A stretch of 49,925 bases of DNA from Parcubacteria group bacterium. GTDB lineage: Bacteria > Patescibacteriota > Minisyncoccia > 2-02-FULL-40-12. Of the stretch, positions 10,081 to 14,535 are shown piece after piece; position 1 is the stretch's first letter; every line of letters starts with the position of its first letter. The DNA lies in NCBI GenBank assembly GCA_016186395.1, contig JACPLU010000007.1, positions 1 to 49,925 of the forward strand, in the 5' to 3' direction. The position numbers and the translations under genes were made by a program. The notes below the pieces were generated by a model. The model was not told the origin of the DNA, did not search any database, and was given only the letters and a program-made list of their open reading frames with translations.

Positions 10081-11166
10081 CTAAAAAAATCTACCTATAT
10101 CTCTAATAGTTACCAACACCATTAATCCTAACAAAAATATAAAGCCCGCCGCATTCACAAGCCCTTCTACTTTCTTATCAAGAGCCTTACGCCTTATTTT
10201 TTCTATGGCCAAGAAAAGTAGTCTCCCACCATCAAGAGCCGGAAAAGGAATTATGTTTAAAACTGCCAAGTTTATCGAAAGAATTGAAACAAACTGAATC
10301 AAATAATTAAAACCTAATCTACTTGCCTGTCCGGTAAATGTCGCGATGCCAATCGGTCCGGACACATCAGCCGCAACCTTTCCATGAACAAGAAGATTCC
10401 CAAAGAAAGAACCTAAACCATAAATAACATTCTCCGTCATAATAACCGCCCCGTAAGCCCCCCGCCAAATAGCCTCATACCAAGGATAGGAAACAACAAC
10501 AGTTTTCTTAATTGAAATTCCCGTCGCCCCTTCGCCAGGTGGAGGATTCAAACGAGGAGTAATGTGCTTTTCTAAAAATTCTGACTTTCCTCTTTGAATT
10601 GTAAGAATAATTTCCTGACCACGATTGGAATTAATAAAGTCCTGTATGTCTTTTGCCGAGGTTGGAACTACCGACGACTCCCTAAACTGAAGTTTTGTAA
10701 TTGAATCAAGAATTCTAAGATCAGCTTCTAAAGCCGGGGATTTAGCTGCAATCCCAACAATTTGGATTTTTGGATCACTAGCGTCAACTGGAATAGCACC
10801 ATCTTCGACAGCAATACGTAACCCTAGCCATCCCCCAATGCTCAACAACACTACCGCTAACAGAAAATTCATTAAAACCCCGGCAACCAAAACTTTTGCT
10901 CTTTGTGAAAAAGTTTTCGATGTAAAACTTTTAGGATCGTTTCTACTTTCGCCATCCTCACCATGAACCTTTACGAATCCTCCGAAAGGTATCAAATTTA
11001 ACGAATAGGTAGTTTCTTTATTTTTCCAGCTAAATAGTCGAGGAGGAAAACCAAATCCAAATTCATCAACCCGCATGCCTGCCCTTTTAGCAAAATAAAA
11101 ATGCCCGAACTCATGGACAAGCACCAGAACACTTAAAACAATAATAAAAATAATCGCAGTAAGCAT
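10081..11166 (-). CDS. rseP: RseP-like site-2 (M50) zinc metalloprotease with PDZ
   Basis: 361 aa with HEFGHF in TM1, a central PDZ-like segment and a C-terminal NxxPxxxLDGG motif (NIIPFPALDGG). Confidence 0.85.
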   Translation of the reverse strand: MLTAIIFIIVLSVLVLVHEFGHFYFAKRAGMRVDEFGFGFPPRLFSWKNKETTYSLNLIPFGGFVKVHGEDGESRNDPKSFTSKTFSQRAKVLVAGVLMNFLLAVVLLSIGGWLGLRIAVEDGAIPVDASDPKIQIVGIAAKSPALEADLRILDSITKLQFRESSVVPTSAKDIQDFINSNRGQEIILTIQRGKSEFLEKHITPRLNPPPGEGATGISIKKTVVVSYPWYEAIWRGAYGAVIMTENVIYGLGSFFGNLLVHGKVAADVSGPIGIATFTGQASRLGFNYLIQFVSILSINLAVLNIIPFPALDGGRLLFLAIEKIRRKALDKKVEGLVNAAGFIFLLGLMVLVTIRDIGRFF

Positions 11167-11186
11167 TAAATCACTAAGAACAGACT

Positions 11187-11316
11187 AAGTTGGCAATATC
11201 TTTGCAACAATGGGAGGCGAAGACTGCTTGGTTTCGCCAACGGCGAAAGTCTTCGCCGACCCTTAGCGAGATTACCGCAGGAGTAATCGAGCGTGTTGAA
11301 AAGATGTTGCCAACTT
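11187..11316. repeat. nested-hairpin intergenic element E1 (homologous to 14068-14190, in inverted orientation)
   Basis: Outer 22-bp imperfect inverted repeat, plus inner hairpins GGCGAAGACT/AGTCTTCGCC and GATTAC/GTAATC. Linker words are shared with E3. Confidence 0.7.
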
Positions 11317-11331
11317 AATAGAAATAATTAA

Positions 11332-11889
11332 CTAAACCTGCATCAGTTCCTTTTCTTTTGCATCTCTAATATCGTCAATCCTCTTATTAAAATCATCCAC
11401 TATTTTTTGCAAACTATCTTTAGCTTTGAACCTTTCATCTTCCCGAATCTCACCAATTTTTTCCATTTCCTGAACTTTATGCATAACTTCGTCTCTTATT
11501 CTTCTAACCTTAATCCTAGTCTCTTCAACTTTTTGATGCAAAAGTTTTGTAAATTCTTTGCGTCTTTCCTCTGTCAAAGAAGGAATAACAAGTCTTACCA
11601 CACTTCCATCAACTGAAGGATTCAAACCTAGTTCGCTGTTTTCAATCGCCTTTTCGATCGCTGGAAGAACGGTTTTATCCCACGGCTGAATTTGAATTGT
11701 CCTAGGTTCAGGGATACTCAAAGCCGCTAATTCTTTCAAAGACATCTCCGAATTATAAGCCTCAACCCTTAAGTTTTCTACCATAGATAAAGAAGCCCGG
11801 CCAGTACGAATACCGGATACTTCTTCCTTAAAATATTGAAAAACTTTTTCTAAATCTACTTTTCTTGAGTCAATAATATTTTGAAACAT
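11332..11889 (-). CDS. frr: ribosome recycling factor
   Basis: 185 aa with typical RRF sequence (RTGRASLSMVENLRVEAY..., VIPSLTEERRKE). Confidence 0.95.
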   Translation of the reverse strand: MFQNIIDSRKVDLEKVFQYFKEEVSGIRTGRASLSMVENLRVEAYNSEMSLKELAALSIPEPRTIQIQPWDKTVLPAIEKAIENSELGLNPSVDGSVVRLVIPSLTEERRKEFTKLLHQKVEETRIKVRRIRDEVMHKVQEMEKIGEIREDERFKAKDSLQKIVDDFNKRIDDIRDAKEKELMQV

Positions 11890-11899
11890 CCTTAATTAA

Positions 11900-12076
11900 A
11901 GGATTTACGCGTTTGGCCAAGTTTAAGGCAAAATCGAGTATTGAGCCAAGCCATAGTAGAACTATGGTGAGGATCAAACGGAGATTTTAACGAAAAAGTT
12001 GACCAAACCCTTGTGGCTTGAGCCGTACCAAATCCTGAATCCTTAAAATTTGGTACGACTCAAGCACGTAGATCCT
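11900..12076. repeat. nested-palindrome intergenic element E2
   Basis: AGGATTTACG/CGTAGATCCT outer pair, a ~25-bp second helix, hairpin CCATAGT-AGA-ACTATGG, and the 17-bp hairpin CTTGAGCCGTACCAAAT/ATTTGGTACGACTCAAG. Confidence 0.6.
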
Positions 12077-12088
12077 AAATTGATAATA

Positions 12089-12925
12089 CTATATCTTTAA
12101 CATCCAGGCATCAAGGGCAAAATGTGGATTTAAGTGAGGCTCTGACGCGATAAAATGTAACTGCAATAACGAACTTAAAGAATCAAAAGAAGTTTTTTTA
12201 TTCTCACTTAAAATAGATTCTCTTGATATCCAAAGCCAATTATAAAGTTTGTCTTTTAATATTTTTCTATCCACGCTAAGACTCTTGCTAGCATTAAATC
12301 TTTCTGACAATGAAGATTTAATTAGCTTTAGAAGTTCCCTTTTATTTTCCAAAAATAGCCTTGGGTCATTTATCAATTCTATTGCCCTAGAAAAAGAACC
12401 ATTAGCTAATCTTATAATCTCATCTATTTCAATACTAGTCGTTTTAAATTTACTAGTAATTATAAATTTCTTTAGCTCATCAGCTTTAATGGGTTTAAAT
12501 CTTAAGTTAATAGTTCTAGAAACTATTGTTGGTAAAAGCATTTCTGGCAAATCCGTTATTAAGATTATAAGACTTCGGCCTTGAGGCTCCTCCAAGACTT
12601 TCAAAAATGCATTAGACGCTTCTCTGGTAAGTTGATGCGCGTTATTTACGATAACTATTTTATATTTTCCCACTGGTGTTAAAGAAATAAATCTTTTAAC
12701 ACTGCGGATGGTATCAATGCCAATGTTTTCGTTATAAGGCTCAATAAATAAAACATCCGGATGAGCCTCGATATTTTCTGTATTTAATACTCTTGTGGCT
12801 ATTTCACGAGCTAACGTATGTTTCCCGACACCTTTTATACCAGAAAATAAATAAGCATGAGAAAGACTGTCAGCCTTAATGGCTTTTTCAAAAAAAAGAC
12901 TTATGTGCTTATTTCCGAGGATCAT
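12089..12925 (-). CDS. holB: DNA polymerase III delta-prime subunit
   Basis: 278 aa with an AAA+ clamp-loader fold (HAYLFSGIKGVGKHTLA, SRT sensor motif). Overlaps the murG stop by 4 nt. Confidence 0.8.
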   Translation of the reverse strand: MILGNKHISLFFEKAIKADSLSHAYLFSGIKGVGKHTLAREIATRVLNTENIEAHPDVLFIEPYNENIGIDTIRSVKRFISLTPVGKYKIVIVNNAHQLTREASNAFLKVLEEPQGRSLIILITDLPEMLLPTIVSRTINLRFKPIKADELKKFIITSKFKTTSIEIDEIIRLANGSFSRAIELINDPRLFLENKRELLKLIKSSLSERFNASKSLSVDRKILKDKLYNWLWISRESILSENKKTSFDSLSSLLQLHFIASEPHLNPHFALDAWMLKI

Positions 12926-14058
12926 GACTTTTGATTGGTGAAGTTTATCAAACTTGAAGCAATTTGAACGGCTGCATCTGGTTTTGAAAACTGAGTTAAT
13001 TTTTGTTTTATTTGATTTACAAAATCCGGTTCCATGATACGACTCAATTGATTAATAAAAATATGAGGAGTCAAATTTTCCTCTTCAAGAACGACGGCCC
13101 CAAATTTTTCTATTGCCTTTGCATTTTGAACTTGATCATGAGAAACACTTTCCGGAATTGGAATAACAATAACTGGTTTTCCCAATACCGCAACTTCAGC
13201 TAGAGTGTTTGCTCCAGCCCTTGTAATTATCACATCTGCCAAAGCATAAGAATCAGCCAAGTTTTGTAATTCCAAAAATGGAACAAATTTATAATTAGTA
13301 CTTATTTGAACTCCATAAGAATTTTTCCCCTCTTTGATGAGTTGAGTAGCTGTATTTTGTACATCACCAAAGTCCAACTCGCCCGTTTGATGAATAATTT
13401 GAAAATCTTGAGTAAGCGCCACCAAAGAATTTAAAATTAACTCATTAATTCTGCGAGCTCCTTGAGTACCGCCCAAAACCAAAATTGTCTTTTTGGTTTC
13501 TGAAAACCCAAAAGCACGAAGTGCGTTTTGTTTTAAACCCTTAAAAACTTCGTTTCTCATAGGATTGCCGACCAGAACTAATTTTTTAGAATTAAAAAAC
13601 TTGTCCAAGCCATCAAAGGCTACAAAGATATTTTTTGCAAGCTTAGCAATAACTTTATTAGCTAAGCCGGGATCGTAATCTGATTCATGAGTAAAAATTG
13701 GAATAAGATAAAAAAAACCAGCTAACGAAGGCGGAACGGAAACATAACCGCCCTTAGTAAAAATAACGTCGGGCATAAAAATTAAAATATGCCACAATGA
13801 TTGAATTCCCCCAAGAATAAATTTAAAAGTATCGGTAAAATTTAAAATACTGAAATAACGTCGCCATTTACCGGCAGATATTATTTTACTTCTAATATTT
13901 ATTTTTGCGAATTCATCTACCCATTTTTTATCGTCAGTTAAAACTAAAAATTCAATGCCTGAAGCACTTTGAGCAGATAATCTTTGTAATTCTTCGGCAA
14001 CAGCTACTAACGGATACACGTGCCCGCCAGTCCCGCCACCGACAAGTAGAATACGCAA
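12922..14058 (-). CDS. murG: UDP-GlcNAc:lipid I GlcNAc transferase MurG
   Basis: 378 aa with GGGTGGHVYP at the N-terminus and a GT28 C-terminal domain (TRAGANTLAE). Apparent TTG start. Confidence 0.9.
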   Translation of the reverse strand: MRILLVGGGTGGHVYPLVAVAEELQRLSAQSASGIEFLVLTDDKKWVDEFAKINIRSKIISAGKWRRYFSILNFTDTFKFILGGIQSLWHILIFMPDVIFTKGGYVSVPPSLAGFFYLIPIFTHESDYDPGLANKVIAKLAKNIFVAFDGLDKFFNSKKLVLVGNPMRNEVFKGLKQNALRAFGFSETKKTILVLGGTQGARRINELILNSLVALTQDFQIIHQTGELDFGDVQNTATQLIKEGKNSYGVQISTNYKFVPFLELQNLADSYALADVIITRAGANTLAEVAVLGKPVIVIPIPESVSHDQVQNAKAIEKFGAVVLEEENLTPHIFINQLSRIMEPDFVNQIKQKLTQFSKPDAAVQIASSLINFTNQKS

Positions 14059-14067
14059 AATGGTGTC

Positions 14068-14190
14068 GTGATATTAAGTTTTAAGACACGCTCAACTGCT
14101 CCAGCGGCAGTTTCGCTAAGAGCAATCTCAATTTTCCTATTCAGGAACCAAGCAAATTGAGATTGCTATTGTCTCAAAACCGAATATCAC
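14068..14190. repeat. nested-hairpin intergenic element E3 (homologous to E1)
   Basis: Same architecture as E1, with different helix sequences (AACTGC/GCAGTT; AGCAATCTCAATTT/AAATTGAGATTGCT) but the same linkers (ACACGCTC, TCGCTAAG, GAACCAAGC). Confidence 0.7.
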
Positions 14191-14199
14191 TCAATAGAT

Positions 14200-14493
14200 T
14201 TATAACGCCCCTTCGTCTCTTAATAATTGTAACTTCTTTTTAGTGCCTTTGGCAAAGCCGCCAATTTTTCCGTCAGAACGAATAACTCTGTGACAAGGTA
14301 TAGGGACTTGCCCTGCCCTTGTCTTGCTAAGGGCGGGATTTTTGTTAAGAGCATTACCAACCGCGCGGTAAGCCTGCGGTTGCCCAATTGCTTTTGCGAC
14401 TTGTTTATAAGTCATAGTTTTACCGCGTGAAATTTTAGCCACAACTGCGTATACTTTTTGTTGAAACTCTGTGATTTGTTTAAGTTTATTCAT
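14200..14493 (-). CDS. ogt: methylated-DNA--protein-cysteine methyltransferase (MGMT/Ogt DNA-binding domain)
   Basis: Contains the PCHRVI active-site motif. The ATG at 14493 follows AAGGA by 9 nt. The ORF track extends to a GTG at 14520. Confidence 0.85.
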   Translation of the reverse strand: MNKLKQITEFQQKVYAVVAKISRGKTMTYKQVAKAIGQPQAYRAVGNALNKNPALSKTRAGQVPIPCHRVIRSDGKIGGFAKGTKKKLQLLRDEGAL

Positions 14494-14503
14494 GTTTTGG
14501 GTT

Positions 14504-14535
14504 CCTTCTGCCCACGGCACTTCTAATTATTTTTA
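14504..14535. repeat. module-junction motif copy M0 (degenerate)
   Basis: ctgCCCACGGCACTTCTAATtatttttacc closely matches copy M3 (CCCATGATACTTCTAATattttattcc). Confidence 0.5.

Follow-up and report, generated by a model that had tools for sequence, protein, structure and literature searches.

Two intergenic gaps within a run of minus-strand housekeeping genes hold the elements described here, which we call E1 and E3. They lie on a 49,925-nucleotide stretch of DNA from a Parcubacteria group bacterium (contig JACPLU010000007.1, positions 1 to 49,925; hereafter the window), which belongs to a source genome of 689 kb with 37% G+C in 11 contigs. A sequence-only reading of the window had described the two as homologous nested hairpins with shared linkers and with helices that differ in sequence yet stay paired. 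Both hairpins are present, and the alignment of the reverse complement of E1 with E3 confirms that the linkers are common to both and that every helix is different yet paired. E1 and E3 are complete members of a dispersed family with a strongly conserved fold (Table 1), and neither a sigma-70-type promoter nor an intrinsic terminator was predicted inside either of them.

Fold and covariation of the family

Relaxed pattern searches first returned four further copies in the source genome, with different helices in each. From a starting alignment of six copies we derived a consensus of 47 pairs, of which 41 show double changes, and built on it a covariance model to search the genome and its relatives, as the sequence-only reading had suggested. 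The model recovered 13 strong copies in the source genome, that is, 11 besides E1 and E3, and more than 100 copies in related genomes, with E-values down to 1e-30. The idea that E1 and E3 resemble each other by chance, or are a local duplication of one hairpin, is ruled out by this number and can be regarded as refuted; further copies were plentiful, and they keep their pairing.

The unit is about 125-173 nt long and consists of an outer inverted repeat of 20-24 bp around a three-way junction. Read 5′ to 3′ on the better-folding strand, which we call the family strand, it runs from the outer helix through the junction AU into P3 (10-14 bp), the bulge GCUUGGU (7 nt) and P4, an apical hairpin that often has tandem G.A, and then through the junction (C)UUA, a 2-bp helix, tandem G.A pairs, the P2 hairpin (6-7 bp, with the loop CGCUGGA) and a single G to the outer 3′ arm. 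The inner part of the outer helix is semi-conserved (CUUUUGAG.../...CGAAAAG) and often carries tandem G.A/A.G, and tandem G.A motifs occur at three places in the element. Characteristic motifs on the family strand are ACAAU, GCUUGGU, CUUAGCGA, CGCNGGA and GAGCGUGU. Conservation is highest in the unpaired motifs, with GCUUGGU, CGCUGGA and the tandem G.A near-invariant. When the window was scanned with Rfam at the gathering score, two tRNAs and nothing else were found, and no Rfam family matched the elements at the gathering score or at E-values up to 10, the best being symR with E = 1.

Pairing holds across the family. Among 46 copies, standard pairs filled 90.6% of the cells of the paired columns, compared with 51.5% after column shuffles and 35-45% when the partners were slid by 1-3 columns, and both-sided (compensatory) change was seen in 46 of the 47 pairs. 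A mutual-information scan of 93 copies returned model helix pairs for all of its top 36 pairs, and beyond the model helices the search for tertiary pairs gave just a possible 2-bp extension of P3. In the 2-bp helix, the GC/GC pairs of E1 become AU/UA in the copy at C3:123944. The covariation-type support for a selected fold that had been read from two copies thus extends to about 100.

The fold of one strand is the preserved one, namely the plus strand of the window for E1 and the minus strand for E3. The predicted minimum energies were -66.8 kcal/mol for E1 plus (z -9.2) and -53.7 kcal/mol for E3 minus (z -7.3), in both cases against dinucleotide shuffles, and all six copies that were folded first were more stable on this same strand. 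G-U exceeds A-C at paired positions by 95:36 and 85:33 in two largely independent alignments, a ratio of about 2.6:1, which indicates that one strand's fold is preserved. The sequence-only reading had picked the right strand, although it had written the linkers on its complement. We take the excess to mean that a folded single strand tolerates wobble pairs; as the family strand lies antisense to the host genes in most copies, a mutation bias linked to transcription or replication would, if anything, be expected to push the other way.

Table 1. Parts of E1 and E3 and their flanking genes (window coordinates; the family strand is the better-folding strand).
Feature	Position	Strand	Remarks
E1	11185-11319	+ (family strand)	Complete family member, ends set by helix; covariance-model 129.1 bits, E 1.4e-28
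E1 outer helix, 5′ arm	11185-11209	+	CTAAGTTGGCAATATCTTTGCAACA; partner 11293-11319
E1 P3 stem	11212-11262	+	11212-11225 pairs with 11248-11262
E1 bulge	11226-11232	+	GCTTGGT, invariant, 7 nt; enclosed by P3
E1 apical hairpin P4	11233-11247	+	Enclosed by P3
E1 junction to P2	11263-11292	+	Junction UUA, 2-bp GC/GC helix, tandem G.A/A.G pairs, P2 hairpin
E1 P2 hairpin	11270-11288	+	Conserved loop CGCAGGA at 11276-11282
E1 outer helix, 3′ arm	11293-11319	+	
rseP-like M50 peptidase gene	10081-11166	-	Pfam; flanks E1, whose family strand is antisense to it
frr	11332-11889	-	Pfam; flanks E1, whose family strand is antisense to it
E3	14068-14190	- (family strand)	Complete family member, ends set by helix; covariance-model 110.7 bits, E 4.4e-24
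E3 outer helix, 5′ arm	14170-14190	-	GTGATATTCGGTTTTGAGACA on minus; partner 14068-14089
E3 P3 stem	14122-14166	-	14154-14166 pairs with 14122-14134
E3 bulge	14147-14153	-	GCTTGGT; enclosed by P3
E3 P4 hairpin	14135-14146	-	Enclosed by P3
E3 junction to P2	14090-14121	-	Junction CUUA, GC/GC and tandem G.A pairs, P2 hairpin
E3 P2 hairpin	14094-14112	-	Loop CGCTGGA at 14100-14106
E3 outer helix, 3′ arm	14068-14089	-	
MGMT-like gene	14200-14520	-	Stop 7 nt before E3, whose family strand is sense
murG	start 14058	-	Starts ~7-9 nt after E3, whose family strand is sense

Distribution and position of the copies

The family is patchily distributed. Across 41 genomes of the same order the copy number ranges from 0 to 35, with copies present in 19 genomes and none in 22. 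At the top of this range, genome G018, the sole member of its genus in the collection, holds 35 copies in roughly 800 kb, which make up about 0.6% of the genome. In a sample of the whole phylum, matches were found in at least 13 of 401 genomes from several classes, a lower bound given that the sample was thin and the filters strict. A pattern search of GTDB genomes, which was too strict, gave nine matches; six passed the model, all of them in metagenome-assembled genomes labelled Patescibacteria or 'Saccharibacteria'. Viral contigs gave 47 matches to a degenerate pattern, none of which passed the covariance model.

E1 occupies a junction that is gap-free in relatives, as expected from the earlier suggestion of a mobile or recombining, MITE-like element. 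The gene order holB-frr-rseP is conserved, and in relatives its junctions overlap or are 0-13 nt long; in the source genome there are 199 nt between holB and frr and 165 nt between frr and rseP, the latter holding E1. One site in genus g9 is filled by a copy of 151 nt in G010 and has a spacer of 11 nt in G013. Such comparisons of filled and empty sites set genera side by side, or species that share about 80% DNA identity, and not strains. Seven copies, spread over four genomes from three genera, share about 90% identity from end to end, arms included, and have unrelated flanks; the housekeeping proteins of the genome family that bears these copies reach only about 45-60% identity with their counterparts in the source genome. 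Every match to the covariance model in the 41 genomes was a complete short unit; neither split nor half copies were seen, no long copy or parent insertion sequence (IS) was found, and the genes enclosed by neighbouring copies were mutually unrelated (FtsQ-like, unknown small open reading frames [ORFs]).

The gap between holB and frr (E2, window 11890-12088, ~199 nt; 13 nt or overlapping in relatives) is filled by a different nested-palindrome element, with one paralogue in the source genome (contig C11:3201-3322, 79% identity over 124 nt). Another repeat family of the source genome has the form ACACTCTTTCTCTTTCTTCGCAAACCCCAGCGTGGTTTGCTCAGGGGTTGAGCCCTTCGCTC..., a variable hairpin, and ...AAACCATGC, and lies on contigs C3 (~148005, 156909, 180638), C5 (~54243) and C9 (~4541).

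Copies also sit inside genes where the frame stays open. Three are read in frame in conserved genes, each adding 44-52 residues, and in all three the family strand is antisense. In the source genome, an insert of 44 residues lies between the ATGHY and NKDQSYFL motifs of MnmA; the other two are in a UvrD-like helicase (G010) and in a GT4 glycosyltransferase (G031 and G019). The family strand carries conserved stop codons and the antisense frames are more often open, and no consistent conserved ORF was found in the element. A tandem in-frame repeat of another kind (APSASSGQ x3) was seen in a glyA/SHMT-like ORF of G018 (L019 1685-2914).

The position of the copies relative to transcription is skewed. 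For copies between co-directional genes, the raw table, in which a few loci are counted twice, lists 32 as antisense and 13 as sense; a de-duplicated count by hand gave about 31:12, with p roughly 0.006 (normal approximation). Convergent junctions hold 28 copies and divergent junctions 9. A sense copy would put a strong RNA hairpin in the mRNA, and antisense and convergent-junction positions would therefore be favoured. We infer that sense copies, with their more stable 20-bp hairpin in the mRNA, have more often been selected against.

These observations bear on an alternative that the fold itself invites, namely that the copies are a multigene family of structured small RNAs that serve the host as protein-binding scaffolds or guide-like molecules, are freed from the 20-bp stem by RNase III and are each under selection. 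Near-invariant loops and a near-invariant junction with covarying helices are the classic pattern of a functional RNA, and both the enrichment of G-U on one strand and the tandem G.A at three places agree with it. RNase III substrates have stems of about 20 bp, a length that the outer stem matches. A host function of this kind is nevertheless hard to reconcile with close relatives that have 0-35 copies, at positions that are not orthologous, and with the loss of all copies in sister genomes without compensating change, which has largely been seen already; 22 of 41 genomes have none. Moreover, most copies are antisense to the surrounding transcription, no promoter was predicted in E1 or E3, some copies lie within coding sequences and are translated, and some decay to bare hairpins. 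We consider this explanation improbable.

Nesting, inversion and turnover of the hairpins

In addition to their scattered positions, the copies show signs of recombination. G018 has at least six places at which a unit of one subfamily is lodged within the shell of another, and one chimeric copy has the arms of two different subtypes, which do not match each other. An orthologous copy is 87% identical between G010 and G019 but inverted relative to its flanks. Contigs C34 and C37 of G019 stop short on either side of the position at which the helicase gene bears a copy in G010; the repeat may have broken this assembly, and copies may break metagenome assemblies. Taken together, the data show that the family multiplies within genomes, appears at new sites, nests, recombines, can lie flipped and can decay to a bare hairpin, from which we infer transposition itself.

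The flipped copy raises the question of whether the elements are invertible promoter or terminator switches (invertons), with 20-bp inverted repeats flipped by a recombinase. The finding of one copy in opposite orientations at an orthologous site in two species is what such a switch would produce, the P4 loops of the g9 subfamily carry GTATAAT, and Correia elements are reported to invert (PMC10969869). However, most genomes have a single Xer-like tyrosine recombinase whatever their copy number, GTATAAT is limited to some subfamilies, no promoter was predicted in E1 or E3, and in-frame copies inside genes cannot be switches. A switch function is therefore very unlikely.

The hairpins themselves turn over in a way that points to DNA-level processes. 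In G018 about 26 copies have a near-identical core, but each has its own P4 tip and its own outermost 4-8 bp of stem. The P4 tips are in many cases perfect loopless palindromes centred on GGCGCGCC, GCATGC or GAGCTC, and inserts in the P2 loop are palindromic expansions of the loop's own sequence. These palindromes and the changing interiors fit template switching at extruded hairpins. The arms pair with their own partner over 13.6 bp and, after arms are swapped between copies, over 7.4 bp; sharing of arm sequence is confined to recent subfamilies and does not extend to the outermost 4-8 bp, which are private to each copy.

At orthologous sites in g9, where the flanking genes are roughly 70-90% identical, the occupant is a full copy in some cases and, in others, a strongly diverged one or a solo hairpin that has no core. 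These solo hairpins are 70-110 nt long with stems of 11-25 bp and lie exactly at the sites of full elements in sister species (L186, G019:C56 ~1968-2081; L193, G013:C35, in the linker of GT4; L196, G013:C6, in the helicase). Either their cores were deleted or the hairpins are landing pads. In the UvrD-like helicase gene, the outer stem CTGGCGG.TGTTGCTTCTTTGG... encloses the core of the family in G010 (L105) and a different large hairpin in G031 (L197; G031:C28). The one clean pair of filled and empty alleles, in g9, has GTTAAAAC on one side and GTTTTAAG on the other side of the filled allele, and a single GTTTTAA in the empty allele, a pattern that would weakly fit inverted flank copying or short-palindrome targeting in this single AT-rich case. 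The flank consensus showed a weak A/G preference only. In the f1 subfamily, the motif AAAGCCCGCAGGGTATAGC was seen 20-60 nt 5′ of the element at L022, L030, L038 and L039, and reversed at L023; a small repeat with a hairpin, or a box resembling a promoter, could account for it.

Template switching at extruded hairpins maintains complementary arms even where selection is absent. Some of the covariation of the helices may therefore be mechanical, that is, the product of palindrome correction at the DNA level and not of selection alone. Carried to its limit, this argument yields a purely DNA-level, self-propagating palindrome with no selected fold, in which arm-to-arm template switching mimics covariation and the spread requires no recognition factor. 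The loopless palindromes at the hairpin tips, the expansions built from local loop sequence, and the arms and cores that change fast together at orthologous sites with flanks still 80-90% identical are all expected from such a palindrome, as are the lack of target-site duplications and of a dedicated enzyme. Mechanical correction cannot account, though, for invariant asymmetric loops or for the G-U excess: the near-invariant asymmetric motifs (GCUUGGU, CGCUGGA and UUA) would be left unexplained, as would G.A pairs that are never corrected to Watson-Crick pairs and the one-strand predominance of G-U over A-C (2.6-fold). We therefore regard a palindrome with no selected fold as unlikely.

Finally, we searched the 41 genomes for an enzyme that could mobilise the family. 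The sequence-only reading had proposed a partner of the RAYT or IS200 type, but this enzyme does not track the element. Y1/RAYT proteins (PF01797) are absent from G018 with its 35 near-identical copies, and from G001, G004, G005 and G006, and they are present in nine element-free genomes. Y1 ORFs (IS200/RAYT-like, about 220-245 aa) occur in 19 of the 41 relatives, and at C10:22062-22343 and C6:11790-12035 in the source genome; as their presence is uncorrelated with the element, they may serve other palindrome families in these genomes. No TnpB (PF07282) was found above the cut-off. Xer-like tyrosine recombinases (PF00589, ~310 aa) number exactly one in 33 of the 41 genomes, including G018, two or three in six, and none in two. 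Reverse transcriptases (PF00078, about 330-400 aa), with 1-4 in each of 36 of the 41 genomes, are near-universal and hence uninformative; in the source genome they lie at C5:22852-23463, C3:30661-31290 and C2:33597-34202. They are probably diversity-generating retroelements and are not beside the element copies examined.

An origin as an element of the repetitive extragenic palindrome (REP) or bacterial interspersed mosaic element (BIME) type, or as an IS200/IS605-derived palindrome-associated transposable element (PATE), moved by a RAYT/TnpA Y1 enzyme, or as a guide RNA of TnpB/IscB, would have agreed with the strand-specific hairpin fold, the absence of target duplications and of a conserved terminal sequence, and the similar GCU(U)GG motif on both hairpins, as would be expected for paired left-end and right-end hairpins; Y1-like ORFs also exist in the source genome. 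This origin is largely refuted by the mismatch between Y1 and copy number, the absence of TnpB and the lack of a HEARO or IS605 match in Rfam.

A probable selfish palindromic family and its relation to known systems

We interpret E1 and E3 as members of a non-autonomous selfish family of palindromic DNA elements of Patescibacteria, a structured relative of MITEs and of the Rickettsia palindromic elements, and give this reading a probability of about 0.65. A trans-acting factor would recognise the near-invariant unpaired motifs (GCUUGGU, CGCUGGA, the three tandem G.A and UUA/AU), and the helices would need pairing only, which would let their sequences drift. Folded single-stranded DNA (ssDNA) is somewhat more likely than RNA as the acting form, given that most copies are antisense to host transcription, that no promoter was detectable and that the loops carry replication errors of the hairpin type. 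The factor would be neither an IS200/RAYT Y1 enzyme nor TnpB. As the single Xer-like recombinase was the only integrase found, a host enzyme or a protein not yet recognised may fill this role. The outermost base pairs, private to each copy, probably arose during insertion: the element would either have entered the tip of a hairpin already present or have acquired an inverted copy of its target's flank. After it has settled in a genome, a copy transcribed in sense would carry a 20-bp helix that acts as a strong RNA hairpin.

Several points weigh against a selfish element. No mobilising enzyme was found among Y1/RAYT, TnpB, tyrosine recombinases and reverse transcriptases in the 41 genomes. Target-site duplications were not detected, in that direct repeats at the helix ends of 92 copies were no more frequent than in a swapped-flank control, and neither a conserved terminal sequence nor a defined terminus was found. 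Deletion rather than insertion could still account for individual sites, and the counts of orientation rest on crude open-frame gene calls. The conservation of unpaired motifs across dozens of resident copies could mean that each copy serves the host, and the data do not tell the ssDNA and RNA forms apart.

A more specific and rather doubtful proposal is that the element moves by an undescribed route, as an ssDNA parasite that is specified by its structure and is either transposase-less or driven by a host enzyme. In such a route the core would be read by a factor, and the element would insert at the apex of a hairpin or form the outer part of its stem as a reversed copy of the target flank. 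This would jointly explain the private outer base pairs, the absence of target duplications, the nesting, and the occurrence of the same stem with different interiors. If true, it could be a common mechanism of many palindromic insert families in Patescibacteria.

The interest of the family lies in the combination of very strong fold conservation, translated copies inside genes and no recognisable mobilising enzyme. Patescibacteria genomes are among the smallest and most tightly packed of bacterial genomes. By separating genes that are translationally coupled, and by lengthening conserved enzymes by 44-52 residues, the element influences how operons are built and how proteins evolve in this vast uncultured lineage. 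Its strong covariation would make RNA-discovery pipelines call it a functional RNA, and it is a useful test case for telling selected RNA folds from DNA processes that maintain palindromes. The conserved single-strand motifs and the lack of a known transposase point to a structure-specific enzyme or host pathway whose discovery would reveal a new mechanism of mobility and might also provide a tool.

Our search of the literature found no description of such elements in CPR (candidate phyla radiation) bacteria, and a recent preprint on intergenic families is silent on them, so the family is apparently undescribed. Among known systems, integron attC sites and the forked hairpin of CTX-phage attP are recombination substrates recognised as folded ssDNA, in which the structure and a few unpaired bases are conserved and the stems vary. 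However, attC needs the integron integrase and CTX attP acts at the single dif site, whereas the Patescibacteria element has no cassette arrays, R-box consensus or extra integrase, and its sites are scattered in both orientations. The HEARO or omega RNAs of IscB-TnpB are likewise multi-copy, dispersed and structured RNAs with covariation that are part of a mobile element, but they lie beside an IscB or TnpB gene and match Rfam, while here TnpB is absent from the 41 genomes and no Rfam family matches. The elements of the REP/BIME-RAYT type, the ends of IS200/IS605 and the PATEs share strand-specific hairpins thought to act as ssDNA and the absence of target duplications, and one subfamily of the Patescibacteria element has a G-N-R-A tetranucleotide just 5′ of the stem, which is a REP-like point. 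REPs are 20-40 bp long with a GTAG or CGTC tag (PMC3733652), and the Y1 enzyme does not co-occur with our element.

Classical MITEs (Correia/NEMIS, ERIC, RUP and BOX) are small, non-coding, multi-copy hairpins, mostly intergenic, which can nest, invert (Correia) and be RNase III substrates in mRNA (PMC10969869). The likeness to the Patescibacteria element extends to the small size (under ~300 bp), the absence of coding sequence, the copy number, the mostly intergenic position, the long hairpins and the nesting. In MITEs the copies have the sequence of their terminal inverted repeats in common, duplicate the target site and descend from an IS; the Patescibacteria element has arms whose sequence is shared within recent subfamilies but not conserved across subfamilies, with no duplication detected and no parent IS found. 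Together with such MITEs, the closest analogues are the Rickettsia palindromic elements, which are also palindromic repeats of roughly 100-150 bp in a reduced genome, are found both in intergenic regions and translated in frame in unrelated housekeeping genes, and have no identified transposase (PMC10969869). The two occur in different phyla and are likened by description, and the Patescibacteria element differs in conserving a three-way junction with invariant unpaired motifs, in the covariation of all its helices and in its strong one-strand G-U signature. We conclude that the family is a structured variant of the kind represented by MITEs and the Rickettsia palindromic elements.

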